Notes: generated by a model not told the origin, from the sequence alone. DNA of 64,000 nucleotides from Thiohalocapsa sp. PB-PSB1 (GCA_016745215.1 CP050890.1:6029455-6093454), one strand, 5' to 3'; positions 4,661 to 42,785 are shown, numbered from the stretch's first letter. Numbers and translations: made by a program.

Positions 4661-7042
4661 TCAGCCCCAATGGTCGGAGGGCTGCCGTTCTGCCAAGATG
4701 CTCTTTTCGACCGTGGTACCGTTCGTGGCGTCAAGACCCCAGGTTACGACGTCGCAGTACACTGGCCCCTGCTGTGCGCGGGGCATCACAAGGCTCCGAA
4801 ACGCTTTGGCTTCGAGCAGCGCTTCGTCGACATTTCGGGTACCGCTGATCCAGCCTTGACGCTCTTCTATCCAATCCCTGTTCACCAACAGTTCAAGTGC
4901 GTGGGGGGCCAATCCTTGGCGTAACAGCGCGAAGCGGGTCGCTGCCATGGTATCATCCAACCGCGCGATGAGTAGGTCATCTGCCGCCCTGCCCCAGTAG
5001 GTTTTGAGAAGAAGCGCGGCTCGGAAGACATGCTGGGCAAGGTCGCGCCACTGCGCCTTCAATGCTTCCGCGAGGTTCTTGGCTTTGTAGAGCGCGTAGA
5101 ACTCTTTATCCTCGAGCTCCTTCCATACGTTTGGCAGGCCCGATGGGGAATAGTAGTCAGACTCAGTAATCGCAACGACCTGCAAGTGGTCGCGCAGACG
5201 AATCAAGCTACGCACATAATTCTGAAGCTCGGGCTTCTCCGATGAGTGGATTTGCGCGCTCTCCATTGCGATTTGAAACCGGTTTTCATTAGTTTGATAG
5301 GTAAAATCCGACGCGATATAACCCGACGCCTGGAGATCCTTGGCGATATATCCAATCATCTTCTCCATCTGCCTTTGCTCGTTTTCCAGCGATTTTTCCA
5401 GCGAATCGACCCTGGCGTCAAGTTGACCAATATCGCCTTTTGCCATTTCTAGGAGCGTGCTGTTTTTGTCACGCTCCTCCTCGAGCCTGCTTATCTCGCT
5501 TTCGGCTGCCTCGTCGATTTGCCCGAAGAGGTTGGCATGGAACGCAGTAAGACAGAGCGCCCAATAAAGATTTTCCAGCATATTGCGTATCGCGTTGAGT
5601 AAAAACCCGATATCAAGGGAATGATTGGACTGTATAGCTTGCAAGCCCTGCCGGAGCCTTTCAAGGTTTTCGAAGGCGTTGAGATTCTCCTTATGTGACT
5701 TCTCCAGCCCACTAGCATTATGCTGCCAATTCTCAGCCTGTTGCAGCTGCAAGCGAACTTTCAGTCGCTGGACGGATTCCGAAGCTTTCTCGATATATGA
5801 ACGCAGCGGCAGGGCTTTATCGATCTGATCGGTCATCTCACTCATCCACCGACCCTGTTCCTCGGAAAATTCCTGCTTCTGGTCCGAAACAAGGTGCCTT
5901 TCCGATTTTTGAACTAATTTTTTATATGCCACGTTATGAAAGTGCTCATTCGTCTTCTCATTGATTTTCTGCTCGAGTTGGCGATCAAACCACCATTGAC
6001 CTAACCAAACGAGAATGACGATCAGAACGCCTTCAATCACTGAAATCCAAAACAGCATCCAGAAAGTGACGCCTCTCGCTGTGGCACCAGCCCATAGATC
6101 CTGGACTTCAGCTGTTAATGTTTTATTGGATTCACTGAGTTCTTTGACCTTTTTTCTCTCATTTTCTCTTTCATCATTTGCTTGCTTCTTATCGTTTTCG
6201 AGCTGCTGATTTTGTTCCTTCAAATTGCTGATTTCTGCCTGGAGTTTGCGGATTTCTCCATTCTTTGTTTCAAGATTGCTACGCAGTTGCCCAATGCCAG
6301 CGGAATCCACTTCAGCTGATTTGTCTATTTTCTCATTGTTGTTAGTTTGTTGCTCGTTGTCAGCAGTTGTTGTATCAACAGATTGGGCATCGCTACCTGA
6401 AGTTGGATCATTAGATGGCGCGTCCTGCCCATATGTATCTGGACGTGGACCGCTACTTAACGAATTGACGAATTCCTCCTGGCTAACCAGCTTGCAGTCG
6501 GTAAAGAGTTTCTCAATAAGCTCGATACGCGTACCCAAAAAGCTAGTGAGCGTTTTGAGCTCTGTCTCGTCTGTCTGATAGGTCAGCTTTAAAATGGACA
6601 ACTGAGATCTGATATTCGAAGGCTTATTACCCCAGTTCTCGCTTATGCGGAGTAGCGCATTGTCGCGAAACAAAGTCTGTTGAAGCAGCTCCTGATAACC
6701 GTAACCCCTCTCATCATTTAGGTTGTCCAACCCGCCAGGGGTAATCAAGGTGCACAGCGAGGTTTGTTGGACCAATGCCTGCGCCGCTGCCCACCATTCG
6801 TATTTGGGAGCTCCTCTTTGGCCGAGCAAGAACGCGTCTGGATAGGTAGGCAGGCTTTCTCGGGGAGATTTAAGATTTTCGATGGCCTCTTTATCGATTC
6901 GATAGAAGTGAATGTCATTCTGGGTGTCGAATATTTTAATCTGTGTTTTGGAATATGTGATGTTTGCTGCCCACAACCCGTCTAAAGGCAACAGCAGGAT
7001 CGACAAGAAGACAGACAGGTATCGTAGTCGCAAATACATCAT
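4661..7042 (-). CDS. signal-peptide / single-TM coiled-coil membrane protein with a conserved C-terminal ~170-aa domain
   Basis: 793 aa. N-terminal signal (MMYLRLRYLSVFLSILLLPLDGLWA), K/E/Q-rich coiled-coil, TM VTFWMLFWISVIEGVLIVILVWLGQWWF. GC is markedly lower over ~5.2-6.7 kb than in the C-terminal domain. Confidence 0.6.
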   Translation of the reverse strand: MMYLRLRYLSVFLSILLLPLDGLWAANITYSKTQIKIFDTQNDIHFYRIDKEAIENLKSPRESLPTYPDAFLLGQRGAPKYEWWAAAQALVQQTSLCTLITPGGLDNLNDERGYGYQELLQQTLFRDNALLRISENWGNKPSNIRSQLSILKLTYQTDETELKTLTSFLGTRIELIEKLFTDCKLVSQEEFVNSLSSGPRPDTYGQDAPSNDPTSGSDAQSVDTTTADNEQQTNNNEKIDKSAEVDSAGIGQLRSNLETKNGEIRKLQAEISNLKEQNQQLENDKKQANDERENERKKVKELSESNKTLTAEVQDLWAGATARGVTFWMLFWISVIEGVLIVILVWLGQWWFDRQLEQKINEKTNEHFHNVAYKKLVQKSERHLVSDQKQEFSEEQGRWMSEMTDQIDKALPLRSYIEKASESVQRLKVRLQLQQAENWQHNASGLEKSHKENLNAFENLERLRQGLQAIQSNHSLDIGFLLNAIRNMLENLYWALCLTAFHANLFGQIDEAAESEISRLEEERDKNSTLLEMAKGDIGQLDARVDSLEKSLENEQRQMEKMIGYIAKDLQASGYIASDFTYQTNENRFQIAMESAQIHSSEKPELQNYVRSLIRLRDHLQVVAITESDYYSPSGLPNVWKELEDKEFYALYKAKNLAEALKAQWRDLAQHVFRAALLLKTYWGRAADDLLIARLDDTMAATRFALLRQGLAPHALELLVNRDWIEERQGWISGTRNVDEALLEAKAFRSLVMPRAQQGPVYCDVVTWGLDATNGTTVEKSILAERQPSDHWG

Positions 7043-12100: not shown

Positions 12101-15100
12101 TCAATGCCAGCGCAGCAGTCCCCAAACGACAGCAACAAACTGTTCCAGCCAAGGATCCTGGTCGATGGGCGCCGCCAGGTCGTGGTTGCCGATCCGCCGC
12201 GCAAGGTCGTCCGGGGACTCTTCCGGACCAGCATTGAAACGACGCAGGGCTGGTTGACTGGCGGCCTCGGCCAGCCAGCGCTCGGCGATGCGTTGGAAGG
12301 TGGCCAACGGTGCCTGCTGCTGCTCGCCGAGGACGATCTCCGGGATGGTCTGTCCGGCAAGCCCGCGCACCGACCAGATGGTACGCATGCCGTCATCGCG
12401 TGCTTGCAGGCGGCCAGCAGCCAGGCCCTCCAGCGCAAAGCCGAGCAAGGCTTGGGGGTCGCGGCAGAGAGTGACCAGGGTCGCCGCCAGGGCCACGGGC
12501 TCGCGGTTCTCGGCGTGACAGTAGGCGTGGTAGCCGCGATAGGCGATGCGCTCTTCGTTGAAGACATAGGTCGGCACCAGAACCTCGCCCATCAGCGATG
12601 CGGTGATCGGGGCTGGCCACAGCCGGTTGCTGGGCAGGTGCTCCTCGCAGCTGATGACCCTGACCTCGAGGGCGTCGACTGGATCGAGCCGGACCTGATC
12701 GACATGTGCGGCACCAGCGTATTGATCGATACCCTGGACCAGAAACAGGCCGCGGGCGCCTTGAATCTGCTCGGTGCGCGGACGCTCGGGGCGCAGCTCG
12801 GGCATGTCGGCCAGATCTTGGTCGGCCAGGGTCCAGGTGGCGAAGTCCGGGCTCAGGTCGGTGCCGACCTCGATCAATTCCTCGGCCAGCTTGCCCAAGG
12901 CCTCGGTCTCCGCGGCCAGCCGGTCGGTGGTCCAGGTCAGATCTTGGCTGCCGCGGACCTGAAGGTTGATGTGCAGCTGGATGTCGTCGCGTTCGACGTG
13001 CCAGGCGAGCCGATCGGTGAGCCGATCGCCGAGCTTGGCCAGAAAGCGCTCGGGCAATCGCCCGATTTGCGCCCAATCCAACGGCAGGCGCGGTGAGCGC
13101 GGCGTGCCGCGGCGTATGCCATCAGTGCTGTCGGCATCGCGCAGGATGTCGATCTCGATGCGCAACAAGCCGGTGCGCTCGTCGAGCAGCCGCAGCAGGC
13201 CATCGCCGTCTTGGCCCTCGCCGAGATGCAGATCCCAGTCACCGAGACGACGCAGCAGGGTTTCGGTCTCGGTGATGGCCTGGGTGCTCAGTTCGGCGAC
13301 AGTCTCGGCCTCACGCCGGACCACCGGGGAGTTGGAGTGCCGGACCAGGTGGTCGGCAATCTCGGTGCCCTCGCGCAATCGGCCGGAGAGTTCGCGCAGA
13401 GCGTGGATGCAAATGGCCAAGGCATGGGGCTCGCAGATGTCCTGCCAGCCGTGGTTCAGGGTGTCCAGCAGCCACTTGTCCAGGACCGCCCGAACCAGCT
13501 CGCGCTGCTTTTCGAACAGTTCGTCACGGGCTAGCGGCGAGATGCCGCCGCTGATCTCGGGACCAGCACCATGGCTGAGATTCTGCTGCAGCTTGGTGGC
13601 ATCGGCCAGTGCCGACAAGGCGTTGAAGACCCAGGGGTAGTCGGTACCCTGCGGGCGCGCGTCCAGCCAGGCATGCAGCAGCAGAGCGACGCGCTCGGGC
13701 TTGTGGGCATCGACGCGATAGTCGACAAAGCTTTGCTCGTCCACATCCCAGAGCCGGTTGGCAAGGGTGCGGCGCAGGGTGTCGACGATCAAATAATCAC
13801 GCAACGTGGCCGGGTAGAGATAGTGGGAGGCGGGCTCCATGCGATACAACAGGCAGCGCCCCTGGGCGGCGGTCAGGCGAGCGTTTTCAGCATCCTGGCT
13901 GACAATGTGCCCGCGCAGGCTGCCGCTTTGGTCGCTGGCAACCCAGGTGAAGATGATCTCGGCGGTCTTTGGATAGAGAACCTCCTCGGCACGCCATTCC
14001 TCGCGGGCAGCGGGGCCGACGATCAGCACTCGATCGAACCAGCGCCGCACCGATGGCAGCCCTGGCGCCGGGGATATCGGTTCGCCGCGGCGGGTGGAAA
14101 AGCGGTCCAGTTCGGCAAGCAAAGCACGATGGTTGACCTCGCGCATGGCCCGTTCCTCGGGCAGGATGTCGAGGGTCTGCTGCGCATGGGGTGCCGATAA
14201 GAACAGGTTTGTAGCGCTGTCGCCAAAGCCGCGTTGCTCTAGCAGGTAGCGCAGCAGCCAGCAGAGGTCGAGCAGACCGCCGCTGCCGGTGCCGCCGCCG
14301 CTGCTGGCAGTGAGGATGAGGTCCAAACCGCGGTCGCCGGCGCGGGTAATCAGGTGATCGAGCAGCGGGCCGAGGCGGGCCTCCAGCTCGACGCGGTTCT
14401 CGAGTAGCGCCAGGCGTCCCAGCGGGCGCAGCAGACCAGTACCGCGATGCAGGTCGGGGCGCACGCCGCCGGCGCTCAGGGCGGCGGCATCGAGCCAGGC
14501 ATGAGCTGGCGCAGTGGCGGTGGCCTCGGTGGCGATGATGGGCTCTAGCGGACGCTCCAGCGTGATGCGCTGGTCCGGCTTCAGCCCGACCATGCCAGCC
14601 CTTGGCGATGGGAAGAACAGCTCGTCGGCGGTGTCGATGGCAAGGAAGCGCAGTTGCTCGGGGTCGACGCGCTCTTCACGCTCGGCGAGCAGGCGCTTGG
14701 CATGCACCAGGGCCTGGATGCCGGCATAACCGAGGCCAACGATCAGCGTCGGTCGCATTGACAGCTTTGGATCGGGCGACCTGGCCCGCTCGAGCAGTGG
14801 TGGCAACTCCAGCGGTTGGGGCTTGGGCTTTACGCTGAGCGGCGCCGCGGGAGGGGCCTCGCCGCAGCGTATGAAACGCCCGAACAGCAGATAATAGAGC
14901 GGGTTGAGGATGAGCCAGAGCAACTGCCAGCCGAGGATGCGGGGCAGCACCAAGACCCGGGGGCCGGCGTTGGATAGGCACTCGTGGGTTTGATTGTCGG
15001 TGGTCTTGGCGTCGAGCCGCGCCGGCTCCGGCGCGATCTGCCACCAGCCGGGGCAGAGCGCTTCGACATTGTAGTGCAGCTTGATCGGTTCTTCCTGCAA

Positions 15101-16078: not shown

Positions 16079-19000
16079 TCAATCCTTCGCGAGCCAGGCC
16101 AGATAGTCGGTGAAATGAATGTCCAAAGTGTCGGGCTCCGGAGGAGGCCTCGATGCATCCTCCACCGGCACGGTCAGCGCATGGCTGACGTAGTAGGCGG
16201 CCGCATCGGCCAGCGACTGGCTTTGCAACAGACTGACGCGCTGCTGACCGTTGGCCGCGTGTACGTACCACAGATTATCACTGGGATTACGGCTGACCTG
16301 GCCGTTCTGGTAAAGGCGTGCGAACTGTTGCAGACGCGGTCGGTCTTCCAGGGCGATGCCAAGTACTGGCGGCAAAACCAGGCCATCGCGCCCAATAGCA
16401 TCGGCGAACTTGGCCGCCTCGCGCTGAAGCAGACGATCGGGCCGATGCAGCAGCTGCGCGTCGCGTGCGGCACTTCCTCCCTCGCTGAGTTCAGCCTGCA
16501 ATAACGGCAGGGCTTGCAGCAGGCTGATACGATTGCGATCATGCAATGCAACCACCTTGACCTGCTCGGCGGCGTTGACGGTCAGCTGTCGCAGGGTGCG
16601 AATCAGCTTAGTCTGGAAGGCGTGCAGTTCGGGATCGGCGATGCACTCGAGATCCGGTAGCGTCGCCAACAGGCTGCTACGCTCGCCACGCAACGGGCCT
16701 TTGAGGCTGTTGACAAAGGGCACCAGGGCCTGATCGCTGTCATCCTCGGTGACCGCGCGCAGCATCGATAACACGTGAAAATCGTTGGCGCGGTCGAACA
16801 CCGGCCCGGCCTCCTCGCGCAGATCCTTCTCAAAGCGTTGCAGTTCCGCCAGGCTCGGTCCATAGCGTCGCGCCTTGGCTCCGCGCAGAACCAGGTTGAC
16901 GCCGACCGGGTCGCCACCAAAACCTGGGGCGCTGAGTTCCCAATGGCAGCGCCCGGCGAGCACCGGAACCAGCTTTTCGTCATCGGTATTGAGCCAGCCA
17001 CGCACAAAGCTCGACAGCAAGTCGTCGAGCTTGCGTTCCAGGCTGTCGCGATCGGCCAGGTCGGCACTGGTCAGCGGTGCTAGCAGTGTCCGCGAGCGGC
17101 CTCGCTCCCATTCGATCAACCGATCCAGCACCTGCCCTGAGTCGGTGGAACGCTCGACCAGAATGCCGCCATAGTCGGTGAGCAGAGCGCCATCGCCGAG
17201 CTCTACCAGCAGGCGGCTGCCGAGGAAGAGTTCGATCCAGGTCAGGGCCTGGCGACGGACGGCATCGAACACATTGCCTAGATCGGAAAGCACCGGATTG
17301 GCGCCCCGGTCAACGCATTCGCCCAGGTGCCTGGACATGGTGTTGGCCATGCGTGCAAGGGCGAGCAATCCCAGGGTGCGCTCGCGCAGCTCGCGGTTGG
17401 CATTGGTAATCAACCGCACTCGCATGGCGTTGGCTGCCTCGGTGAGGAGATCGCTGTCCAGGGACAAGCTGTCGAGAGCCTCGCAATGGCCCAGAGCCGC
17501 TTGGCAGAGGGCGGCAACCATGCCTGCTGGATCGACTCCGGAGTCAAGTCCGCAGAGCTTCTCGCCATCGACGGGAAGCGGCTCAAGTGTCGCTCGGCCC
17601 TGGTCGTGCTCTAGTTCCGGGAACAATACCTGTCGGTTGCCGAGCAGATTGATCAAGCGATTGAGCAACAGCTCGCGGAAGAAGCTGCGGGGGAAAACCG
17701 CATCGTGAACGGCGATCTCGGTGTAAAGTTCGCGCCCTTGCTCGGCCCGTCGCCGCACTTCGGCACCCTGGATGGCCTGGAGCTGATAGGTCAGCTCGGT
17801 ACGCCGGGAGCGGTCAAGCAGCAGCATCGCGGCATCGGCTGCTGCCGGCAGATCGTCGGCGTCGAGTCCGTTGCGGCCCGCCCGCATGGGCAGTGCGAAG
17901 ATCGCGTCCTGGGGGCGACGGCTGACCAGGCCATCGAGCGCGCTCGGTTTTATGTCTTTGGCTGTTGTGTCTTTGGCGCCGTCAAGCTGATCGGGGTTGG
18001 CTGCGACAGCAGCCAGACGGTGCTGGAACGGACGGCTGCCGGCGGTTGCCAAGCGGTCGATCTCGGCAAACAATACCGGCGAGTCCAGCGGCACCAAGGT
18101 GCCGCGCTTGGCTTGGCGCTCACCAATGAGCAGACAGTTGAGCTCGACCGCCTGACCGGCATGCTCGTCGTCGGCGACCAGTCTGCGCAACAGGATCAGC
18201 ATGTCGGTCAGCCAACCGGTGCTGACGCCGCCACGCAGGCTGGCGACCAGAAGGATTTGGCGTCGGCGTTGCTCTGGGCGGATCTTGCGCCAATCGTCCA
18301 GCGCTCGGGTCAAACGGTTCAGCAGAGCGCTCCGCCCACCATTGGCGAGATCGTTCAACAGGGCTAATCGGGCAAGCGGCGCCTGGCCTCGAGTGCCATT
18401 CGATAACCGTAGCGCTTCGGCGCCCATATCGACATAAGGGTAAAGGTCGAGCGCCGCCGCCGGGTCATTGCGATCGCGGATGGCCCGTTGCTGTTGCTGG
18501 TGGACGGCGTCGTACAGTGCGCAGGATTCGGTCGGGAGCACGAACACCTGATCGCGCGAGAGCGGGTCGAGACAACCCGGGACTGGCTCGCCAGCACCAT
18601 CGCGCAATTCGTCGCGGGCGACATCCAGCGCCAACAGAACCGGCTGACTGTCGGCATGATTAAAGCTGTCGGCTAGGTTCTGTTTGATCTGTGTCAGAAC
18701 CGCACGGGCCGAACCGCCCAGACCGAGCACTAGTGTTGGAACCCAATCGACGCGCTGGGCATCGGGCGGGAAGCGTAGGGGTAGATTTGGTGGTGGGCGG
18801 TATTCCTTGCGCCATTGTACCGGCGCAAGCTCCGGCGGTGTTGCCGAGGCGCGGAACAGCCAGGCGAGCCAAGTCGCCAGCAGGTAGGCAATGGCCGGCA
18901 GCATCAGCATGAACAGGAACAGCCAGGTGACCACCAACACCTTCGGCATGGCCTCTGTATCCGGCTTGATCCGATAAGGCTCGCCGGACGATGTGGTGTA

Positions 19001-19993
19001 GCGCACCTGCGCGGGCTCATGCAATGTTTTCAGGATGCCGCCCATCTTCGGGTCTAGGGCAGCCTGCCAGGTGTAGGGGCGGGGGAACAGGGTGCCGATG
19101 CGAAACTGTTCCGAATTCTTATCATAGGGCTCGATCCTGATCCGTTCCCGCGTTGCGTCGGTCTTGTCCCCGGGGTCGTCTCCCCAAGACCAGAGAGGCG
19201 CGGCGAGCGGCAGGCTGAGTGCGGCGTTGCGGCCGAGCGCATTGCCCATCCGAGCCGCTACCTCCTGGAACAGCAAGCCGATGGTGCCGGTGGAGGCCGA
19301 GGCCAGGATATACCGGGACGGGTCTTCGGTCAGGCCGAAGAAGCTCTCGGGATCTTCGGCTCCGGTGCCGACTCCGAGCAGGTACAGCTCGTGGCCCGAG
19401 CGTTTCCATCGTGCATCGTAGAACTGGGCCAATGTGGCGGTACTTTCCGCGGCTTCGCCGTCGGTGAGCATGACGACGGTACCAAGCTCGCCGGTGGCTT
19501 CCATCATCGCCAATGCTTCGGTCAGCCCCGCCAGGAACTGGGTTCCGCCGCCGGCATCCGGCCATGGGCGCTGTAGTTGGTATGCCAGCTCGGCCATGTC
19601 CGACGTGAACGGGCTGACGATCTTGGCCTGACTGCCGAACTCCATCAGCCCGATGCGCACTGGAATGCCGCTGCTGGCGAGGTTGCGCTGCATCTCGAAG
19701 ACGGCTTGCCGGGCATCGCTGATGTACATCTGCATCGAGCCCGAGGTGTCAATCAGGAACAATAACGGTGCCTGTTGCCGCACATCCGGCGCGCGGATGC
19801 CCTCAGCGCCGCTGTAGTCGATCCAGAGCTCGGCCGTCTCCCAGGGCAGCACGATGTCGCGCGGGACGGTCACCCGTAAGGGATCATCGGCGGCGGGCTG
19901 AGGCTGGGTCAGCTTCACCCAAAGGGCCATGCCGCCCAAGACCGCCAGTCCGAGGATAACCAACAGCAGCGTTCGCCAGAGGGTCCGCATCAT
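16079..19993 (-). CDS. paralogous giant membrane protein: TM - vWA - TM - tubulin-like domain with degenerate signature
   Basis: 1304 aa with the same architecture. vWA motifs LFLIDTSGSMQ ... VMLTDGEA. T1-like LVLGLGGSARAV. The T4 position reads LVASLRGGVSTGWL instead of GGGTGSG. Confidence 0.6.
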   Translation of the reverse strand: MMRTLWRTLLLVILGLAVLGGMALWVKLTQPQPAADDPLRVTVPRDIVLPWETAELWIDYSGAEGIRAPDVRQQAPLLFLIDTSGSMQMYISDARQAVFEMQRNLASSGIPVRIGLMEFGSQAKIVSPFTSDMAELAYQLQRPWPDAGGGTQFLAGLTEALAMMEATGELGTVVMLTDGEAAESTATLAQFYDARWKRSGHELYLLGVGTGAEDPESFFGLTEDPSRYILASASTGTIGLLFQEVAARMGNALGRNAALSLPLAAPLWSWGDDPGDKTDATRERIRIEPYDKNSEQFRIGTLFPRPYTWQAALDPKMGGILKTLHEPAQVRYTTSSGEPYRIKPDTEAMPKVLVVTWLFLFMLMLPAIAYLLATWLAWLFRASATPPELAPVQWRKEYRPPPNLPLRFPPDAQRVDWVPTLVLGLGGSARAVLTQIKQNLADSFNHADSQPVLLALDVARDELRDGAGEPVPGCLDPLSRDQVFVLPTESCALYDAVHQQQQRAIRDRNDPAAALDLYPYVDMGAEALRLSNGTRGQAPLARLALLNDLANGGRSALLNRLTRALDDWRKIRPEQRRRQILLVASLRGGVSTGWLTDMLILLRRLVADDEHAGQAVELNCLLIGERQAKRGTLVPLDSPVLFAEIDRLATAGSRPFQHRLAAVAANPDQLDGAKDTTAKDIKPSALDGLVSRRPQDAIFALPMRAGRNGLDADDLPAAADAAMLLLDRSRRTELTYQLQAIQGAEVRRRAEQGRELYTEIAVHDAVFPRSFFRELLLNRLINLLGNRQVLFPELEHDQGRATLEPLPVDGEKLCGLDSGVDPAGMVAALCQAALGHCEALDSLSLDSDLLTEAANAMRVRLITNANRELRERTLGLLALARMANTMSRHLGECVDRGANPVLSDLGNVFDAVRRQALTWIELFLGSRLLVELGDGALLTDYGGILVERSTDSGQVLDRLIEWERGRSRTLLAPLTSADLADRDSLERKLDDLLSSFVRGWLNTDDEKLVPVLAGRCHWELSAPGFGGDPVGVNLVLRGAKARRYGPSLAELQRFEKDLREEAGPVFDRANDFHVLSMLRAVTEDDSDQALVPFVNSLKGPLRGERSSLLATLPDLECIADPELHAFQTKLIRTLRQLTVNAAEQVKVVALHDRNRISLLQALPLLQAELSEGGSAARDAQLLHRPDRLLQREAAKFADAIGRDGLVLPPVLGIALEDRPRLQQFARLYQNGQVSRNPSDNLWYVHAANGQQRVSLLQSQSLADAAAYYVSHALTVPVEDASRPPPEPDTLDIHFTDYLAWLAKD

Positions 19994-20026: not shown

Positions 20027-23000
20027 TCAGCTTCGAGAGCCTAGGAAAGGCCGAAGGTGGTGGGTCATGATCAGTCCGAGGAAGGCGTCCTTCCCTATCA
20101 TCGCGCCGTTGCGACTCTGCTCCAGTTCGACCCGAAAGAGGTGTGGTTGGGCATCATGAAATGCTGCGGCCATCGCTTCCAAGGTCTTGCCCTCAGCGGC
20201 AAGTGCCTCCTCCATCCAGCCCTGCACGCGGCGCAGATCGATCGCGCCGCGGGTTCGGCGGCGGCGATCGTTGCGGTCCATGGTGAAGGTAATCAGTGCG
20301 CGCAGCAGATCTTTCGGGTCATTGTCGTCTTCGGGATCGTTGAGGTAGATCAGCTGTTTGGTGTCCTGCTCGGATACGGGTCCGCAGATCCAAACCTTGC
20401 CGCCGGTGGCAATCGGCTGGCCACGGATCACCCCGACCACCAGGGCCTTGGTGAATATCTCCACGGACTTCGGATCATCGAGCAGGCGGCAGAACTGACC
20501 TGGGATCTCGGGGAAATGCGTATCCCGCGTCTCGACGACCTGGGCATGCTCCATGCGCCAAGCCTCTTGGTCGCATCGGAACAGGTGATAGGTCTCGGCA
20601 CGCCATTCGGGATAGTCCTCGTCGCGCACCCGCAGGTAGTCTGCCCGCATCCGATCTAGGGCGCGGATTTCTCCATAGGGGATGGCGTTATCCGCCATCA
20701 GCACGGCAAGCACGTTGCGGTCCCTGAAACGATTGACTCCGTTGGTATCGGTGAGGTTGTGTGTGATCTTGCCGGACATATTGGCATCGCCGGCCATGGC
20801 GTTGTAGACGTCGTCGAAGGCGTCATCGCCATCGCGGTCCCGATTCCAGCTATCGCCATGCAGCAGCAGCAGCTTGCGGCTATCGGACGTGGGCCGTTGA
20901 TCGAGAAAGTTGCTGGTCACCGAGCGCAGTCGATCGGCAAGCGAGGTCACCGGGTCGCGCTTGTCATCGCGCAGCCACTTCAGGTAGCGCGCCATGCCCT
21001 CGAATTCCTTGACGCGCTTACCGATCCGTGTCGACAATGCGTGGTTGAGGGTTTTGGGGAAATCGCGGGCGGCGAGCAGGTCGCGTTCAGGCCAGCCTTC
21101 CAGCGCTAGATCCTGCGGGCGTTGTCCGGGCTTCCAGGTCAACTTGAGGAGCAGGTCGTCGACGAACGACTTCTCGGTCTGCGGGTCGAGCAGGCAGCGC
21201 TTGCGCAGGAAGTCCCGATAGCCATCCATATCGACAGTATTTTTGACGCCCATGGAAGCCGATCGGTGCTGGGTCTGGCGATCAAGGCGCTCTGCGATCT
21301 CGCTGCCCTCGTCAGTGGCCTCCTGGACCACCCGCAACAGCCCTTGCTGCCAATCCTGGATGCCGTTGAGCCAGCTGGTGACATGTTGATCGGCGACCTT
21401 GAGCATCTCCTGGATGAATTCGACCAATTGGCCGCGCTGCAGCCACTGGTTGACCTCGTTGGCAGCGTTCAGGTACGCCTCTTCGGTGTCCGCGAGCTGA
21501 CCTTTCCAGCCCAGAAGCTTCTTTTCTAATTCCACCAGTGCAACGCGGGCGTCCTTTTCCTCATTGCGCGCTCCTTCCAGCCCAGCGCGATCGTCAGCGA
21601 CGATCTGTTCCAGTGTATTGCGCAGTTCTGACATCAGCTTGCCAAGCTCATTGATGATCCGATTCGTCTTGCCCAGCGCCATCTCGCGGGCCTGTTGCTT
21701 GCCTAGGTACTTGCGGACACTATCATCGATGGAGGTTTGGATGCGCTCGACGATCAACGGGCGGATCAACGCCACCGATGCCTTGAAGCCACCGATGCCG
21801 TCGCCATCGTAGTCACGACGCCGCAGGGCGACCTCGGCCTGTACTCGCTCTTTGGAATCGTCGAATTCTTCCTTGACATCGCGAACGGTCTGAATGTCTT
21901 CGAAGATGTCGGCAAACAGGCGGCTGGCCGCCATCTCCTTGTCCTCGCCGATGGGGCGGCCAAACACGCCCAGCGGATTCGCGAAGCCGAGCATATCATT
22001 GACGATGAACGAGGGATTCATCTGATCCGATAGATCCTGGCGCTCCTTTTCGGTGTCGGGCTCTTTCAGGATGCGGAACAGTGCGAACAACTCGGTGGAA
22101 AGGATGTCTTCCGCATCCCGGCGACGATCGTCCGCTGAGCCTGCGAGCAGTACCTGGGTATCGGTATCGCGCGGCAGGAGCCCGTTGGCGACATCCAATG
22201 CGGCATCGAGCACGAACTGACGCTCATAGAGGCGAGTTGGGATAAAGATGCGGTGGGAGTTGAACGAGGTAGCGGCTCCCTCCCTGGCGTTGATCCATTG
22301 GCGAAAGATTTCGTCGCCGGCGGAATCGTCCAACAGCAGGTTCAACCCGTCGGCGATTTCGGAAAAATAGGACTTGCGTCCGTCGGCACTCTTGCACTCG
22401 CGGTTGTAAAAGACCAGATTGTCGAACAATTTGTCGGTCAGGCTGACGCGGGTCGAGGAATCATAGTCGACCGAGAAGCGGATGCCGTCCTCTTGCTCAC
22501 TGATCCGACCGCGATATTCGGTCTCGACGGGTGCCTGGAACCGCTCCAGCTCGCGTATCACGGCGTAGGCCCGGGCACCATCGATGTCGACGTCCTTGTA
22601 GGCGTCCGGCAATACCGCCGCGCCGATGATGCGGAAGCGAAGCCCCATCTGCTCGGCCACCAGCCGGGCGAGCAATGCCAGATCCATGTAGAGTCCGGCG
22701 CCGGTGCCGCCGGCGACCGAGCCAATGATCCAGATCGGCAATTCGCCATCGGCGTGCCCGCAATTCTCCATCGCATAGCGCAGCATGCTGACGACGCGCT
22801 GCTTATTCAGAAAGGCACCCATCCGCGCGAACTGCCGATGCTGTCCGGCACCGCGCACCAGGTTGAAGTCAGCATTGGACAGGTTTTCCTGGAATAGGTC
22901 GGCGCGATACCAGCGCGCCATCTCGGCCATGGTTTGTGGGTCGCGGGCGACCTTGCGGGTATAGTCGGCAAAGGTGCCGGGGGGGTCGTCCTGGAGCTGC

Positions 23001-23218
23001 AGATATTCGTTGCCTTCGATCGCCGTCGCCGAACCCTCGCCGCCCAGGCGCGCGCCCTTGTTCTTGCGATGGTCGTCGGCTTCGGTGTCGATCAACCGAA
23101 ACTGCAGGGTAGGTGGGATCGAGCCCGATGTGGCATAAACCTTGTCTTTCAGACGGGCGAGTACCTCGTCTCCAGTTCCACCGATGCCGATAAACAGACT
23201 GCGCATGCCGTTCTCCAA
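20027..23218 (-). CDS. standalone large tubulin/FtsZ-like GTPase
   Basis: 1063 aa. N-terminal LFIGIGGTGDEV (T1-like) and IIGSVAGGTGAGLYMDLALL, matching [SAG]GGTG[SA]G, about 160 aa downstream. Confidence 0.7.
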   Translation of the reverse strand: MENGMRSLFIGIGGTGDEVLARLKDKVYATSGSIPPTLQFRLIDTEADDHRKNKGARLGGEGSATAIEGNEYLQLQDDPPGTFADYTRKVARDPQTMAEMARWYRADLFQENLSNADFNLVRGAGQHRQFARMGAFLNKQRVVSMLRYAMENCGHADGELPIWIIGSVAGGTGAGLYMDLALLARLVAEQMGLRFRIIGAAVLPDAYKDVDIDGARAYAVIRELERFQAPVETEYRGRISEQEDGIRFSVDYDSSTRVSLTDKLFDNLVFYNRECKSADGRKSYFSEIADGLNLLLDDSAGDEIFRQWINAREGAATSFNSHRIFIPTRLYERQFVLDAALDVANGLLPRDTDTQVLLAGSADDRRRDAEDILSTELFALFRILKEPDTEKERQDLSDQMNPSFIVNDMLGFANPLGVFGRPIGEDKEMAASRLFADIFEDIQTVRDVKEEFDDSKERVQAEVALRRRDYDGDGIGGFKASVALIRPLIVERIQTSIDDSVRKYLGKQQAREMALGKTNRIINELGKLMSELRNTLEQIVADDRAGLEGARNEEKDARVALVELEKKLLGWKGQLADTEEAYLNAANEVNQWLQRGQLVEFIQEMLKVADQHVTSWLNGIQDWQQGLLRVVQEATDEGSEIAERLDRQTQHRSASMGVKNTVDMDGYRDFLRKRCLLDPQTEKSFVDDLLLKLTWKPGQRPQDLALEGWPERDLLAARDFPKTLNHALSTRIGKRVKEFEGMARYLKWLRDDKRDPVTSLADRLRSVTSNFLDQRPTSDSRKLLLLHGDSWNRDRDGDDAFDDVYNAMAGDANMSGKITHNLTDTNGVNRFRDRNVLAVLMADNAIPYGEIRALDRMRADYLRVRDEDYPEWRAETYHLFRCDQEAWRMEHAQVVETRDTHFPEIPGQFCRLLDDPKSVEIFTKALVVGVIRGQPIATGGKVWICGPVSEQDTKQLIYLNDPEDDNDPKDLLRALITFTMDRNDRRRRTRGAIDLRRVQGWMEEALAAEGKTLEAMAAAFHDAQPHLFRVELEQSRNGAMIGKDAFLGLIMTHHLRPFLGSRS

Positions 23219-29104: not shown

Positions 29105-30136
29105 TCAGCGTACCCACACGAAGGGTCCAGGGATAATCAAATACCCACCGGTACCATCCGGGCTGGGAACATGAATGCTCAAATTGTAGAGCCCTGGTGG
29201 GCCAACAAGATCAAGTTGTCCCTCGGCGCGACTCCCGTTTTGGACCAGCGCGGCTGGAACGGCGCCTTGCGGTGGCCGATCGGTAGCCAAATCCGTCTGG
29301 ACGATGGAGGTCGGGAGCGGCTTGCCAGACACAGGATACAAGCTTGTTCGCAAACGCGCCCCAACCGAGGCCTCCTCTGGGATGGGTTTATCCGCAAATG
29401 CGTAGGCGTTGGCGAAAAGCTGCGTGCATTTACGCATTTGGTTTCGGCTAATGCTCGCATCAGCACCTTCTGCACAACCAACCCCCAGGTGTGTGCTATT
29501 TGCGGCCAGGATGTTGCGGCGATGCCCAGGGCTTTCCATCCACATCTGGTTGAATTCGGCAGCTAGTGCGTCATCAGGGATGGACTGAGAGCTATACTCG
29601 GCGACGTTTTCGGAGGTCAAGCCGAACAGCGTCCGGTGCAGTCGCGCTACACGCTGCGCCGGGCCATCGCCATCGGGTGAGTCATGGGACAGGTAGGTCC
29701 GTTCCAGCATGTCCCGGCTGTGCCGTACCGCAATCTCGGCAAGATTGATCTCGTCTAGAAGTTCCGTAAGCGAACGTGAGGCGCGTTCGCCATTCGTCAG
29801 CACAAAAATCTGCTCCGCAACCTGCTGCATGGAGGCTGACATCTGCGCGTATTCGTCTTTGACCCAACGCTCCTCGGAGAGCATGGCCGATGCCGATGCT
29901 AGACTGGCAGGAGGAGCGGGCGGCACGATCACCTGAGGCTGTGATGGCGACGGGGAGGTCCACAAATCATCCGGCTGCGGAACTGCCGCTTGCTCGGCCG
30001 ATGGGCCGAGACCAAATCCGTAATGCAGTAAGAGTAGCAGCGGGGGGCGCAGCAAATAGAATGCTGTGATGAGGATCACAAGCAGAAGCAAAAATACGAA
30101 CAGATCTGAACGTTGATTATCCGTAGACGCATTCAT
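29105..30136 (-). CDS. membrane-anchored CAP/SCP (PR-1-like) domain protein
   Basis: N-terminal TM. Pro-rich linker. CAP motifs VLTNGERASRSL...AVRHSRDMLERTYLSHD...MWMESPGHRRNILAANSTHLGVGC. Confidence 0.65.
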   Translation of the reverse strand: MNASTDNQRSDLFVFLLLLVILITAFYLLRPPLLLLLHYGFGLGPSAEQAAVPQPDDLWTSPSPSQPQVIVPPAPPASLASASAMLSEERWVKDEYAQMSASMQQVAEQIFVLTNGERASRSLTELLDEINLAEIAVRHSRDMLERTYLSHDSPDGDGPAQRVARLHRTLFGLTSENVAEYSSQSIPDDALAAEFNQMWMESPGHRRNILAANSTHLGVGCAEGADASISRNQMRKCTQLFANAYAFADKPIPEEASVGARLRTSLYPVSGKPLPTSIVQTDLATDRPPQGAVPAALVQNGSRAEGQLDLVGPPGLYNLSIHVPSPDGTGGYLIIPGPFVWVR

Positions 30137-31417: not shown

Positions 31418-32584
31418 TCAACCACCATGTTCACCATGAGGAGAGTCGCCCTGGTTCCGGTCCGGATCTTCGTTGATCCTAGGAACCGAAGCGTTGAATC
31501 CAACTTGCGCCGTTGGTTGCGTCGGCGGGCCGAGCAAAGTCGCCAGAAAAGCCTGGTCTGAGATCGCAGAGCGGGTATCCGGTCCATTCAAGGATTCTTT
31601 TAGTGCGTCGGCATACTTGTCCTTGAGCTCAAGAATGTACACATCCTCGAGCTCGGCCCGTTGGGCACGTTCTAGGGCATCTTCGATAGTCGTCAGCCGA
31701 TCTTTCGGCTGCAACTCTGCCTTCCTGGTCTCGAAGGCTACCGCAAGCGCATCCATCGCCTCTTGCCACGGCCGGGAGTAGAAGTTCTCCAGCAGCCGCA
31801 TGTCCAGGAATCGGGCAACATCGCGCACCTTGTAGGGGGCATAGGTCTGGTCGACTTCCAGCAGCCGATCTGTCTTGCTACGATCAAGTATACCTCCCTC
31901 CCCAAATACCTTATCGCGGAGCCGCCGAAGATGATCGGTCAGCTCTGTGCTGGGTTCGATGAGGACGCTGACTCTATCGATTTTGACGCCTGGTACGGTT
32001 GCATGCTGATGGACATGCGTCTCCAGTCCGTTTTTGACGAGCGTAAGGGCGCGATCGAAGATACGGTCTACGAGGCCGCGTTCGACATGGGAAGCGTCTT
32101 CTAGTAAGCGATCGCTGGTCAGCCCGGTAAAATATTCTCGGGTCGTCGCGACGACTCTGGCGCGTAGGCTCGCAACCGGATCCTTACTGCCATTCCAGAA
32201 TTGCTCCGCATCCGTGACGCGCCACTCCAAGGTCAAACGGCAATCCACATCGTTACCGTCCGCAAGGCGGTATGTCTCTGAGTCGGCAGAAATCTCCAGC
32301 GTCCGCTGGCGCATCTCGACAAAGATGAACAGCATACGATCAGCGTCTTGCGCAGCGACGTGAATCGACGGACGATCAGTGGTCAAAGCGGCGACGAAGA
32401 CAGGTGCATCGCCGACGACCTCCATGACGATAATGTGCCGGTCCGCGTCCGCGCGCGGCACCGGCGGCAGCGCGCGCCGGAAGGTCGGCAGCCGGCGCTT
32501 GATGCTGTATTCCGCCTCAGAGTAGACCTCCGACCGGTAGGTCTCGGTAGCGCGCAGTTTTTGCAGCCAGTCTTCAAGCAACAT
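31418..32584 (-). CDS. hypothetical protein with SPFH/band-7-like core
   Basis: 388 aa. The segment DVDCRLTLEWRVTDAEQFW...SLRARVVATTREYFTGLTSDRLLE...GVKIDRVSVLIEPSTEL follows the SPFH consensus pattern. Confidence 0.4.
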   Translation of the reverse strand: MLLEDWLQKLRATETYRSEVYSEAEYSIKRRLPTFRRALPPVPRADADRHIIVMEVVGDAPVFVAALTTDRPSIHVAAQDADRMLFIFVEMRQRTLEISADSETYRLADGNDVDCRLTLEWRVTDAEQFWNGSKDPVASLRARVVATTREYFTGLTSDRLLEDASHVERGLVDRIFDRALTLVKNGLETHVHQHATVPGVKIDRVSVLIEPSTELTDHLRRLRDKVFGEGGILDRSKTDRLLEVDQTYAPYKVRDVARFLDMRLLENFYSRPWQEAMDALAVAFETRKAELQPKDRLTTIEDALERAQRAELEDVYILELKDKYADALKESLNGPDTRSAISDQAFLATLLGPPTQPTAQVGFNASVPRINEDPDRNQGDSPHGEHGG

Positions 32585-32638: not shown

Positions 32639-33799
32639 TCAATCCGGCGTCAATAATTCGCGGTAGGATCGGCAAGGTATATTGGATTGAGCATCTCCGC
32701 CACGGCTGGATGCACGCCTCTGTGCGGCCCGATCTCGTAGCCGATCCCAGCGCTCGATATGAAAGCGCAAGCGATCGCGCCGCTGGCCTAGATAGCGCAT
32801 CTGCAATGCAAGAAAAAACTGCCGGTAAGGGTCGAACAGCGCCGGTCGCTCCTGGTCCAGCAGAGCCAACGCACGTTCGGCCCAGCCTTTGACCTTTTCC
32901 GTGGTTTGTTCTTGTACGATCACATGCAATGGCAGGCGTGAGTCGTCCCATAGGGTGCCGACCAGCTCCACCGCAGCCGAGCGCATGTCTTCGCTGTCGA
33001 CGGCATCCTCGATTCGTAAAAATTCAAGCGTGAGCAAAGCAGACAACAGGCGTAGCGGAGCGTCTCTGTCGGGCTCGATCCAAAGCAGCAACGCCCTGAG
33101 GCCACGCTTTGGATCGGCGTCAAAGATTCGGCGGAACAGCTCTGTGATCGGCAACAATAGCAACCACATCCACTCGGTAGTCGTCGTCACCTCGATCAAG
33201 TGCAGCGCAGCGTCGCTTCGCACACTGTTGTAGCGCCAGGTCAGTGCACCTAACGCCACCCTTATAAGAACCGGGTTGTCAGACTTGGCCCAATGGCGGA
33301 TTAGGGCGAGGATGTCGGCTTCGCACCGCCCCGCTATCAAGGTCTCAGCCAGTGCGATGGCAGCCGAGTCCATGCAGTCGGCATTGTTGGAATTGACCCA
33401 AGGCAGAAGAATTCGAGCCTTGAGGTCGGCGAACGGCAACTGCTTTGCCAGTACGCTTACGGCAAGAGCCGCGAAGTATCTTGGCTCACGCTCGCCGCCG
33501 CAGCCCATTTGGCACAGGTAGTCATATAACCTCGGCAGTCGATCGTACAGGGCGGGCAGGTTCAGCAGACCAAGTGCCGCCGATCGTTCTTTCTCTGTTG
33601 CGAAACCAAGAGACTGAACTTGCGTAACCCCATGCTCGGTGTTTCGCGATACCTCAATGATGTTGGCGCCAGTACGCGCAAGTGCGTGGAAATCGCCGCC
33701 TTGTTGTTGTGAATCTGCTTCGTTTTTGCCGTCTTTGCGCAACAGCGAGGCTGGGACATCAATTACCAAGCGGTCGGTTTCGTCATCTCTCGCCGTCAT
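32639..33799 (-). CDS. hypothetical helical-repeat (HEAT/ARM-like) protein
   Basis: 386-aa ORF. Its stop overlaps the next start. Confidence 0.45.
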   Translation of the reverse strand: MTARDDETDRLVIDVPASLLRKDGKNEADSQQQGGDFHALARTGANIIEVSRNTEHGVTQVQSLGFATEKERSAALGLLNLPALYDRLPRLYDYLCQMGCGGEREPRYFAALAVSVLAKQLPFADLKARILLPWVNSNNADCMDSAAIALAETLIAGRCEADILALIRHWAKSDNPVLIRVALGALTWRYNSVRSDAALHLIEVTTTTEWMWLLLLPITELFRRIFDADPKRGLRALLLWIEPDRDAPLRLLSALLTLEFLRIEDAVDSEDMRSAAVELVGTLWDDSRLPLHVIVQEQTTEKVKGWAERALALLDQERPALFDPYRQFFLALQMRYLGQRRDRLRFHIERWDRLRDRAAQRRASSRGGDAQSNIPCRSYRELLTPD

Positions 33800-34548
33800 T
33801 CCGGGCTGCTCCTGTCATCGGAGGTTTGATCACTTGCAGGATCGAGCAGCTTTTCGAAATCACGAGCGACCCCGACCAGGTAGGTCCGATTCATCTCTTG
33901 GAACAGCGCGGTCGCCAGCACGTTGCCGCGTTCTAGAGGGTTCAAATCGTTGAAGAACCAGTCGCTTACATTCTCGGCATTGTCGCTCGACAGCGGATGC
34001 TCCGTTGATGTCTGCCCGACGTTCTGCCGCGCGGGCGATGCCGCAGCACGAAACTCGGCGTATTCTGCCTCGCGGGAATCGCGGTTTTTCTTGCAGGCTT
34101 CCGACCAACGCGGAAACCATTCGTCGTATTTCGGTTTGCTCTCGCTGGCCAACCAGTCCCAGAGCTGAGGAACCCGATCGCGACTCTCGCAGTAGGAGAT
34201 CAACTCACGAAGGATACCGAAAAAACGATCCGTCTCCTTGAGCAGTTTGTGGACATCGTCAAAGTGCTCGAAGCAATAGGTGCGCAGGGCTTCCTCGTTA
34301 TGGAATGCACTGGAGAAGCACTCCAGCAAGACTGCTCTTGGGGACTCCTGGCCTCGACGTCTTGCGTCTCGGATCTTCGCTTCTTCGTCGTCAGTTTTCT
34401 CAGCGCGAGGGGTTGTTGAGGCTTCTGCGGATTGATCTGGTGGAGTCTTACTGGCCCTGGCGGTATCCGGGTCTTGTGCGTCAGCAGCGACTGTCTCAGC
34501 AACACTGTCGGGAGCCTCGGTGGATGTCTCTTCGAGATCGTTGGTCAT
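33796..34548 (-). CDS. acidic protein carrying a ~60-aa helical module homologous to the C-terminus of the upstream nucleosidase-like protein
   Basis: RAVLLECFSSAFHNEEALRTYCFEHFDDVHKLLKETDRFFGILRELISYCESRDRVPQLWDWL aligns with the upstream protein's C-terminal module. Start MTNDLEET forms an ATGA overlap with the upstream stop. The ORF in the track extends to 34767. Confidence 0.6.
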   Translation of the reverse strand: MTNDLEETSTEAPDSVAETVAADAQDPDTARASKTPPDQSAEASTTPRAEKTDDEEAKIRDARRRGQESPRAVLLECFSSAFHNEEALRTYCFEHFDDVHKLLKETDRFFGILRELISYCESRDRVPQLWDWLASESKPKYDEWFPRWSEACKKNRDSREAEYAEFRAAASPARQNVGQTSTEHPLSSDNAENVSDWFFNDLNPLERGNVLATALFQEMNRTYLVGVARDFEKLLDPASDQTSDDRSSPE

Positions 34549-41899: not shown

Positions 41900-42129
41900 C
41901 GAGTCAGCGTCTCGCGGAAACGTCGATGCAAGGGATAAACCCGTAAGTCCTTGATGGTAGCCCTTTCAAGGTGCGCAAAAACAACACTATGAATCAGTCT
42001 CTTAGCGTCAAGGGTTCGCAGGCATCCGCAGCCGCTTGCCAGCTTTTCGGAAAGCAAACACGGCAGAATCATGTAGTTGCAATCGTACACGTATCAACAT
42101 CTTGAAAGGGCTGACCTTAATGCCCCGTA

Positions 42130-42680
42130 GGTATCTTGATGGGTGCTGACTTAAAAAAATGTAAGGATTCACCGCAGAGACACAGAGGGGCCAAGGCGCC
42201 TCGCCCGCAAGCGGACCTTTACTAGGGGGCTGTCCGAGAATGAAAATAAGACACAAGATATAGAGTGCACAACTTGATTGTAGGCGCTATATGTTGTGCG
42301 TGCTCTGAGTTCTCGGACAGCCTCCTAGCCATGGGAACCGGTCGGCATAGGAGCCCGCTTGCGGGCAATCCGGCAAATGATGCCAGCGGATCGGACGCGC
42401 GCGCTGCGCCTCTCCCGGGAGAAAGGCTGTAGGCCACTGTCTTCTCGACAAATGAACTGAAGATCCCCCAGGATGCAACCCGCCCAACGCGACTTGAACG
42501 GGATCGGGATCGAAAAAACACATCCTCAGGGCGTGAGAAACCTGACATTGATTGGGCGGACGTTTGCTGGGCGCTGCCTTCGAAGAATATGAATCAGGCT
42601 TCTTTCTGGTTGAATAGCGGAACATTCTTCAACAGGCAGTACCCCCTTGATGTCGATCCAAACTCCAGGACGATAAGGCA
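42130..42680. repeat. copy A of a dispersed ~0.3-0.5 kb repeat family (interrupted by a MITE)
   Basis: Shares gattcaccgcagag..gcccgcaagcggacc..ggagcccgcttgcgggc..ggcaaatgatgccagcgga..ctgtcttctcga..cgcgacttga..gggatcgggatcgaaa..gggcgtgagaaacctga..gctgccttc..gaatatgaatca..ctggttgaatagc with the copies at ~56975 and ~63190. Confidence 0.65.
42222..42330. mobile_element. ~105-bp MITE carrying the IS1182-type terminal inverted repeat
   Basis: ggggctgtccgagaa ... ttctcggacagcctcctag with a short AT-rich core. It is absent from repeat copy B at the orthologous position. Confidence 0.7.
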
Positions 42681-42785
42681 TCCCTTGCCGGCTGCTGCGA
42701 CCGCAATAGCCAGGCCCCAAGCCGAACGGCGGAGTCGGAATTCCAGAGGGCTATGACGTCGGCATCGAGCCGCCGTCGAGCAATG

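Follow-up and report, generated by a model that had tools for sequence, protein, structure and literature searches.

What does a bacterium retain when the T4 glycine box of a tubulin-like protein loses its threonine, and with which partner does such a protein work? The question is raised by gene B, which lies in a 64,000-nucleotide stretch of Thiohalocapsa sp. PB-PSB1 (GCA_016745215.1, CP050890.1:6029455-6093454; hereafter the window). It belongs to a row of large genes, all on the minus strand, that we label A to E, V and X, and it encodes a vWA domain, a transmembrane segment and a tubulin-like domain in one chain. The original prediction for this locus saw two such proteins, B and its neighbor A, and took B to be the inactive member of a pair built on the logic of alpha/beta-tubulin. 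There are, in fact, three tubulin-like paralogs in succession, C, B and A, and the third, C, is soluble with nearly invariant GTP-binding loops. We propose, with a probability of about 0.5 and by analogy with FtsZ mutants, that B would be a hydrolysis-deficient, assembly-competent membrane anchor, nucleator or cap for polymers of C, perhaps still nucleotide-binding, and that A would be a second anchor in this clade.

The T4 box of gene B

The open reading frame of B is intact (1304 codons) and reads RGGVSTG where A reads GGGTGSG. Between B and A, BLASTP found an alignment for the vWA and transmembrane part only and none for the tubulin-like domains; comparing the domains of A, B and C needed profile-profile alignment (hhalign) of ortholog alignments. 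By this measure the tubulin-like domain of B matches that of A with a probability of 98.8% (E 1.4e-16) and that of C with 94.4%, while the A-C comparison gives 95.5%; for the whole cytoplasmic part the values are 99.4% over 749 columns for B-A and 96.7% over 717 columns for A-C. In these alignments RGGVSTG occupies the same columns as GGGTGSG in A and AGGTGAG in C. The loop is thus where the original prediction had put it, and both the altered box of B and the canonical box of the adjacent paralog are borne out by translation, by two assemblies and by these alignments. A misplaced T4 loop in B is ruled out, since three profile alignments agree. The matching architecture of the two proteins also holds: domain order is the same in A and B, and both have an intact DxSxS metal ion-dependent adhesion site (MIDAS) in the vWA domain, a tubulin-like domain and roughly 500 residues of C-terminal sequence, except that a hydropathy scan flagged only the N-terminal transmembrane segment of A and not a second one.

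B scores 24.0 bits against Tubulin_2 (PF13809), below the gathering cut-off of 27, compared with 66.8 for A and 107.3 for C. By profile comparison B is nonetheless homologous to bona fide Tubulin_2 members, and a profile of its domain retrieves proteins with Tubulin_2 scores of 63-174 bits. The predicted structure of B is confident and contains a complete two-domain tubulin/FtsZ fold that aligns with 275 of the 342 residues of CetZ. In the model, S4-T4-H4 spans residues 577-605 and H7-kink-H8 spans residues 712-752. The latter segment reads LLLDRSRRTE in B, with the Arg-Arg pair in most orthologs, and LLLDxSAG[D/N] in C, and is variable in A; the H7-H8 kink may correspond to T7, judging from the model. 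A C-family profile aligned with an approximate E. coli FtsZ sequence at a probability of 1.4%, which is not significant, with T1, T2 and T4 placed as expected, and this weak alignment was used for loop naming only.

Could the box be an error, or the mark of a decaying pseudogene? Relative to its orthologs, the window copy of B differs by GGC GCC to AGC ACC, two first-position G>A transitions without a frameshift, and the resulting G-to-S and A-to-T changes occur in no other organism whose B ortholog was examined. The window is, however, identical over 23,939 bp to DQHX01000036.1, a contig of the Chromatiaceae metagenome-assembled genome (MAG) GCA_003525925.1, and a 7.95-Mb contig of JGI metagenome 3300066691 matches it over 23,180 bp with a single 3-bp gap and no mismatch and likewise encodes RGGVSTG. 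An assembly error is ruled out by the agreement at these bases of two assemblies built from different data sources. The reading frame is intact, the threonine is lost in every ortholog, and the G-to-S change recurs independently outside the ortholog set, in L019 (GGISGGW) and P0180 (GGVSGGW). Artifact or decay as the source of RGGVSTG is therefore barely credible. We note separately that the single difference between the window and the JGI contig (L013) over the 23 kb compared is the 3-bp indel, which lies near the C terminus of C (20027-20076) and gives 1059 versus 1058 residues.

How far is the change shared? B homologs are rare: only 17 were found among 5.8 billion proteins, at 32-73% identity, and a genome scan for B relatives yielded only 2 loci. 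The set of B sequences comes to 20, including two added from related loci beyond the 17 homologs. None of the 20 has the T4 threonine; the position is Val in 15, Ile in four and Leu in one. The canonical first glycine is present in only four. The consensus is x-G-G-[V/I/L]-[G/T/S]-x-G-W, in which the glycines at positions 3 and 7 are invariant and position 5 is Ser in the window copy only. Orthologs with the canonical box had been named beforehand as what would refute the call, and the box is found in none of them. The call of a degenerate signature therefore stands for the threonine and the first glycine, which are lost family-wide, and fails for the G-to-S and A-to-T changes, which are strain-specific; across the family, Thr gives way to Val, Ile or Leu and the first Gly is lost, a milder change than the window copy implies.

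Among the neighboring loops, the T1 pattern GxGxxG (GLGxxGR) is kept in 18 of 20 B sequences, and the window copy and its closest relative, P0001, read GLGGSA, with the last glycine lost. At the T2-equivalent motif, LD[V/L]ARDE in B, all 18 sequences compared (the window copy and 17 orthologs) have Val or Leu at the position that is Thr in A (IDTADE) and C (IDTEAD). Because the T2-equivalent Thr of A and C is Val or Leu in B, a second hydroxyl residue appears to have been lost in B, at the putative T2 loop. The two paralogs behave differently. C has the T4 threonine in 35 of 35 orthologs, 34 of which read exactly AGGTGAG, and its T1 motif GIGGTGD is almost invariant; A has it in 16 of 19, the others being one GGGVASG and the two most distant sequences, GGGGG-G and GSGSG-G.

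Far from decaying, the B domain is subject to strong purifying selection. No other region of the protein is as well conserved: its mean pairwise identity is 58%, compared with 44% in the vWA domain and 35-40% in the C-terminal parts; at matched loci the tubulin-like domains of B, A and C show identities of 58%, 53% and 63%, respectively. B thus shows two of the marks expected of a pseudo-enzyme, ortholog-wide loss of catalytic-site residues and a conserved fold, and is a candidate for one. Only six of the 17 B orthologs have a precomputed PF13809 match, so that the tubulin fold escapes Pfam in 11, and many proteins annotated as vWA domain-containing hide a tubulin fold in this way. Public annotations of three B-type proteins (P0003, P0005 and P0015) read 'vWA domain-containing protein', 'YegL' or 'hypothetical protein'.

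Fused and stand-alone copies across the family

Is the state of the T4 box tied to domain architecture? A B-domain profile searched against 1.84 billion cluster representatives gave 397 matches at E <= 1e-3, 149 at <= 1e-10 and 20 at <= 1e-30, and T4 states were read in the best 150 of the 397. The threonine position is hydrophobic in 101 of these 150, with a MIDAS motif upstream in 84 of the 101; it is Thr or Ser in 42, among which the domain is N-terminal and stand-alone in 26. A Fisher test of this pattern gives p = 6e-15, a naive and purely descriptive value given the related sequences and the B-biased ranking. Pfam searches of six samples confirm the architectures: proteins with GGVGSGW are vWA plus Tubulin_2, and those with GGTGSGM are stand-alone Tubulin_2. 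Many distant vWA-fused relatives have GGVGSGW as a stable signature.

A metagenome scan found 78 loci, 14 of them with enough upstream sequence to be read. In all 14, a stand-alone gene with [S/A]AGGTGAG lies directly upstream of a B-type fused gene, 12-246 bases away; the fused gene has GG[V/I]GxGW in 13 and Thr in one. A second fused gene, of A type, is present in only two. Among the unique copies at the metagenome loci, 46 of 47 stand-alone sequences keep the threonine, and the fused sequences have a hydrophobic residue in 14 instances, Thr in four and another residue in three. Thus, fused copies are usually without the T4 threonine and stand-alone copies keep it. BLASTP separates the two fused lineages: genes whose box ends in GW are B-type (100-128 bits to B and 45-51 to A), and the A-type sequences, at 121-149 bits to A, comprise the second fused genes as well as P0038 and P0040. 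Outside this clade the T4 box of A-type genes is completely degenerate (SDAETSG, ADAEGSG, AEAEASG). At L025, L032 and L033 the A-type gene is without the T4 glycine box (SDAETSG, ADAEYSG) and the B-type gene has GG[V/T]GSGW, the reverse of the contrast between A and B in the window. The dead-looking fused paralog therefore differs between clades, and motif loss is not seen in the stand-alone paralog of these operons.

These observations bear directly on the pairing of A with B. An obligate alpha/beta-tubulin-like heterodimer of active A and inactive B as the functional unit would fit the architecture common to the two proteins across 749 aligned columns, their adjacency 39 bases apart, and their co-occurrence in all 13 places of the clade whose sequence reaches far enough, with GGGTGSG kept in A and not in B. 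However, the commoner version of the locus has five genes, with a B-type and a stand-alone gene and no A-type gene: 12 of the 14 loci are of this kind, and the P0139 locus consists of CAP, X, vWA, stand-alone Tubulin_2 and a single vWA-Tubulin_2 gene, followed by unrelated genes. Moreover, the degenerate A-type boxes of other clades mean that active and inactive roles are not fixed, and of the three paralogs C alone has nearly invariant motifs. The analogy itself is imprecise. GGGTGSG is present in both alpha- and beta-tubulin, whose difference lies in the T7 loop; both subunits of BtubA/B and of the Asgard AtubA/B, as far as is known, likewise keep the canonical T4 box, with the asymmetry in T7. 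Here, in contrast, the asymmetry is in T4 and T2, and there are three paralogs, two of them membrane-anchored. We consider an obligate A/B heterodimer unlikely. Since all 14 loci place the stand-alone gene upstream of the B-type gene and only 2 of the 14 contain an A-type gene, the conserved partner of B is C and not A; the conserved core is a B-type gene with a canonical stand-alone gene, and the A-type gene is an optional second fused paralog. The proposal that the two vWA-tubulin proteins form the pair, which had missed C, is not supported by this comparison. Its view of B as an inactive paralog fares better, as the conserved loss and purifying selection fit a maintained non-catalytic or variant subunit, but the role is not fixed to B, A-type copies being more degenerate elsewhere.

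Do the three proteins assemble together at all? If they did not, A and B would be independent transmembrane receptors of different vWA specificity, and their motif differences would be drift. A and B share only about 23% identity in their vWA domains, and the T4 box varies freely among fused copies, as such a scheme would predict. Against it stands gene order: C-B-A is fixed, wherever sequence reaches, in 13 related places (L001-L012 and the P0017 contig) and again in both assemblies of the source organism; the three genes are separated by about 10-260 bases across the related places, and the full cytoplasmic architecture is common to all three paralogs. Characterized proteins of the tubulin superfamily, moreover, work as polymers or dimers. 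Independent receptors are thus a poor explanation, one to which we give little weight.

A proposed role for gene B and comparison with known systems

What would a membrane-bound tubulin-like domain do without its T4 threonine? By analogy with FtsZ T108A, we propose that B no longer hydrolyses GTP, and that it may still bind nucleotide through the backbone amides of its glycine-rich loops. B would then be a membrane-fixed, non-dynamic anchor, nucleator or cap that co-assembles, via tubulin-type interfaces, with the soluble, presumably GTP-hydrolysing C and, in this clade, also with A. Input would come from the periplasmic vWA domains and the CAP protein, so that periplasmic events would be coupled to the assembly of a cytoplasmic polymer. 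Such an assembly may serve in membrane remodelling or in a response to invaders. As to the CAP protein, P0098 is, by Pfam, a CAP, PD40, vWA and Tubulin_2 protein in one chain. P0098 and P0037 are giant proteins of about 2270-2300 residues in which CAP, the PD40 beta-propeller, vWA and Tubulin_2 are fused, with CarboxypepD_reg also in P0098; because of this fusion, the separate CAP gene of the operon is functionally linked to the vWA-tubulin proteins.

The analogy draws on mutants of FtsZ. E. coli FtsZ T108A has no GTPase activity and still forms membrane rings, which are static (bioRxiv 10.1101/079533). GTPase activity is markedly reduced in FtsZ G105S and T108A, and in B. subtilis FtsZ T111A it is ten-fold lower with an unchanged critical concentration (PMC3618327). 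T108A (ftsZ3) and G105S (ftsZ84) alter the same positions of GGGTG[S/T]G that are altered in B, the threonine and the first glycine. They are, however, laboratory mutants of a division protein, whereas the B variant occurs naturally and is conserved, belongs to a very distant subfamily and has further changes in T2.

The same mutants bear on whether B is a working nucleoside triphosphatase for which GG[V/I/L]GxGW is simply an alternative signature, backbone amides sufficing and the threonine being dispensable. The invariant glycines 3 and 7, the T1 pattern in 18 of 20 sequences, the standing of the domain as the most conserved part of B and the stability of GGVGSGW in distant fused relatives are all consistent with activity. 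Against this, FtsZ without the threonine is inactive or markedly impaired, the T2 threonine and the first glycine are lost in B as well, the window copy and a few others tolerate G-to-S in the box and G-to-A in T1, and the stand-alone paralogs of the same operons keep the threonine. On balance we doubt that B is a working enzyme of this kind.

Several points weigh against B as a hydrolysis-dead anchor. T1 and T4 of B retain their glycine pattern, and its putative H7 helix retains an acidic residue (AADA), so B could still bind, and perhaps hydrolyse, nucleotide. The T4 position may simply be unconstrained in B-type proteins rather than selected for inactivity; L018 has Ile there and L020 has Thr, though both are about 59% identical to the same query, and Thr, Val and Ile evidently interchange. 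The library counts are not independent, coming from a B-derived profile, from related sequences and from a ranking biased toward B. The loop names T2, T3 and T7 derive from motif order and the secondary structure of the model. Finally, co-assembly of B with C or A is suggested by gene order and homology alone, and the literature searched holds no experimentally characterized FtsZl1 protein, C included.

Where does this locus stand among described systems? It is of the FtsZl1/vWA kind, with A and C as Pfam members and B as a sub-threshold homolog. FtsZl1 proteins (PF13809, Tubulin_2) occur in vWA-containing operons for which membrane remodelling has been proposed (Makarova & Koonin 2010, PMC2875224); one archaeal member fused to a transmembrane segment was noted, and T6-H7 was not detectable by sequence (PMC2875224). 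As in those operons, large C-terminal regions follow the tubulin-like domain and the vWA proteins have an intact MIDAS and transmembrane segments. Unlike them, the present operon has vWA and tubulin-like domains fused, three paralogs in fixed order and a conserved T4 threonine loss in one, and is without a P-loop GTPase, kinase or OmpA gene. We did not find the vWA-tubulin fusion or the paralog pattern in the main text of PMC2875224, and the FtsZl1 and tubulin/vWA conflict-system literature searched yielded no description of the vWA-transmembrane-tubulin fusion, the fixed paralog order or the relation between fused or stand-alone state and the T4 box.

Sets of tubulin, vWA and HSP70 proteins have also been placed in GTPase-centred conflict systems, among them the GAP1-N2 DO-GTPase systems (Kaur et al. 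2020, PMC7159879), whose Firmicutes version has two tubulin paralogs and an extracellular vWA domain, with HSP70 in other variants (PMC7159879). The likeness lies in the tubulin-domain paralogs, the vWA proteins and the Hsp70-like ATPase region of gene D, together with the same-strand DO-GTPase2 gene some 9 kb upstream. In contrast to those systems, which come from Firmicutes and Actinobacteria, this locus is from Chromatiaceae-like Gammaproteobacteria, and Pfam searches of its eight genes found no DO-GTPase, no GAP1 gene and no FNIII match. Because the operon is without a GTPase, GAP1 or FNIII component, it is not a DO-GTPase/GAP1-N2 system as defined. A natural precedent for a degenerate T4 box is the FtsZ of Nitrosopumilus maritimus, whose box reads AGKAGSA and which formed no filaments in yeast, a result that restoring the box did not change (PMC3684127). 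Like B, it is a tubulin-superfamily protein kept in the genome with a degenerate T4 box; unlike B, it is soluble and lies outside any multi-paralog membrane operon.

The operon, its setting and its implications

The core of the operon comprises the CAP gene, X, the vWA protein gene V, C, B and A, optionally with D and E; it is rare and membrane-spanning. Positions are collected in Table 1. The C/B and B/A gaps in the window are 33-39 bases. Among the named sources of relatives are Ca. Thiosymbion oneisti, Ca. Kentrum and Chromatiaceae MAGs. In the related places, C-B-A is preceded by CAP, X and V, the position of V being kept wherever sequence reaches that far, and D and E lie downstream in most; D and E are missing from four, with D absent at L004, L011, L012 and the P0017 contig.

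Table 1. Positions of the array genes, of loops and domains in the tubulin-like paralogs, and of neighboring genes in the window.
Feature	Position	Strand	Basis and remarks
CAP gene, CAP/SCP (PF00188) protein, 343 aa (amino acids)	29105-30136	-	N-terminal transmembrane anchor; heads the array; kept upstream in related places
Gene X, ~1100 aa	25568-28918	-	No Pfam match or transmembrane segment; first large core gene; position kept in related places
Gene V, vWA membrane protein, 781 aa	23284-25629	-	Periplasmic vWA (MIDAS DQSGS), beta-rich region, transmembrane segment, short cytoplasmic tail
Gene C, soluble stand-alone tubulin-like protein, 1059 aa	20027-23206	-	Tubulin_2 alone, E 1.3e-30
C, T1 loop GIGGTG	23171-23188	-	Translation
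C, T4 loop AGGTGAG	22694-22714	-	Translation
Gene B, vWA-transmembrane-tubulin-like protein, 1304 aa	16079-19993	-	Pfam VWA, VWA_2; Tubulin_2 sub-threshold
B, vWA domain, aa 77-234, MIDAS DTSGS, predicted periplasmic	19292-19765	-	Pfam; motif and flanking transmembrane segments
B, second transmembrane segment, ~aa 352-380, between vWA and tubulin-like parts	18854-18940	-	Hydropathy scan
B, two-domain tubulin/FtsZ-like fold, ~aa 417-805	17579-18745	-	Predicted structure
B, T1-equivalent loop GLGGSA, aa 424-429	18707-18724	-	Translation, ortholog alignment
B, T2-equivalent LDVARDE, aa 456-462	18608-18628	-	Motif order, model secondary structure, weak E. coli FtsZ alignment
B, T4-equivalent loop RGGVSTG, aa 587-593 (R587...G593)	18215-18235	-	hhalign to A and C boxes
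Gene A, vWA-transmembrane-tubulin-like protein, 1312 aa	12101-16039	-	Pfam VWA and Tubulin_2, E 2.7e-18; T1 GLGYAG
A, T4 loop GGGTGSG, aa 581-587	14279-14299	-	Translation
Gene D, 1669 aa	7039-12048	-	vWA-like (DASGS), transmembrane segment, cytoplasmic Hsp70/actin-like ATPase region; accessory
Gene E, 793 aa, transmembrane and coiled-coil	4661-7042	-	Last gene of the array; 4-base overlap with D
Band_7 gene	31418-32584		Between operon and DO-GTPase cluster
DNA_alkylation gene	32639-33799		Between operon and DO-GTPase cluster
EAD7 protein	33796-34767	-	Pfam
PNP_UDP_1 and EAD7 protein	34545-35948	-	Pfam
Two genes without Pfam match	36682-38991, 35558-36712	-	DO-GTPase cluster
DO-GTPase2 (PF19993) gene	38991-41456	-	27.6 bits, cut-off 27; ~9 kb upstream of the operon
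IS-type DDE transposase gene	369-1907	+	Flanks the region
IS-type DDE transposase gene	44079-44909	-	Flanks the region

Hydropathy and MIDAS motifs give V, B and D one layout, an N-terminal transmembrane segment, a vWA or vWA-like domain, a second transmembrane segment and a cytoplasmic part, and their vWA or vWA-like domains are presumably periplasmic. A DxSxS MIDAS is present in four operon proteins, with Pfam vWA matches in V, B and A and the motif only in D. The Hsp70/actin-type motifs of D (DFGTS, DIGAGTLD and SGRTSLWPGF) are invariant in six orthologs, and hhalign against the nucleotide-binding domain of an approximate DnaK sequence gives 73.7% (E 2.9e-5); Pfam and PDB sequence searches miss this region. 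The same operon thus contains vWA fusions to a tubulin-like and to an actin/Hsp70-like nucleoside triphosphatase.

Other searches were largely negative. The eight array proteins show no convincing Walker A motif, only two sporadic pattern matches (in the vWA domain of A and the C-terminal region of C). PADLOC gave no defence-system match for X, V, C, B, A and D, and NCBIfam gave weak generic vWA matches only. PDB sequence searches with C and D found nothing, and a PDB search with a B profile that included the vWA columns retrieved vWA structures only among the 60 matches listed. The window is without tRNA or Rfam matches.

Upstream of the operon, beyond two unrelated genes, lies a cluster around a DO-GTPase2 gene, which, with its PNP_UDP_1 plus EAD7 effector, looks like the GAP1-N1 type and not the tubulin-linked type. 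This defence-island-like setting, seen in a single genome, mildly favors the conflict reading. Positions 1-2000 and 42001-44000 have an atypical base composition, with an AT skew of about 0.21. The matching MAG contig DQHX01000036.1 ends near the transposase and atypical-composition positions, and repeats probably broke the MAG assembly there.

Finally, the locus can be regarded as a natural experiment in which one operon holds three paralogs of differing loop conservation: nearly invariant in C, canonical within the clade in A, and in B conserved despite the loss of the T4 and T2 threonines. It offers a testable hypothesis, a division of labor between a GTPase engine and hydrolysis-dead membrane adaptors, in FtsZl1, the most divergent branch of the tubulin/FtsZ superfamily. 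If this model holds, B would be the first receptor domain fused directly to a tubulin-family assembly domain. We raise, more tentatively and as a possibility that we hold to be less likely than not, that the operon encodes an undescribed transmembrane cytoskeletal device in which a periplasmic vWA receptor, with the CAP protein, is fused to a hydrolysis-dead tubulin-like domain that templates, nucleates or caps the GTP-dependent polymerization of a soluble paralog. Were this so, binding outside the cytoplasm would be converted directly into the assembly of a cytoplasmic tubulin-family polymer, a bacterial analog of receptor-templated polymerization or of gamma-tubulin-type nucleation, and the loss of the T4 threonine in fused copies, with its retention in stand-alone ones, would be the signature of the device.

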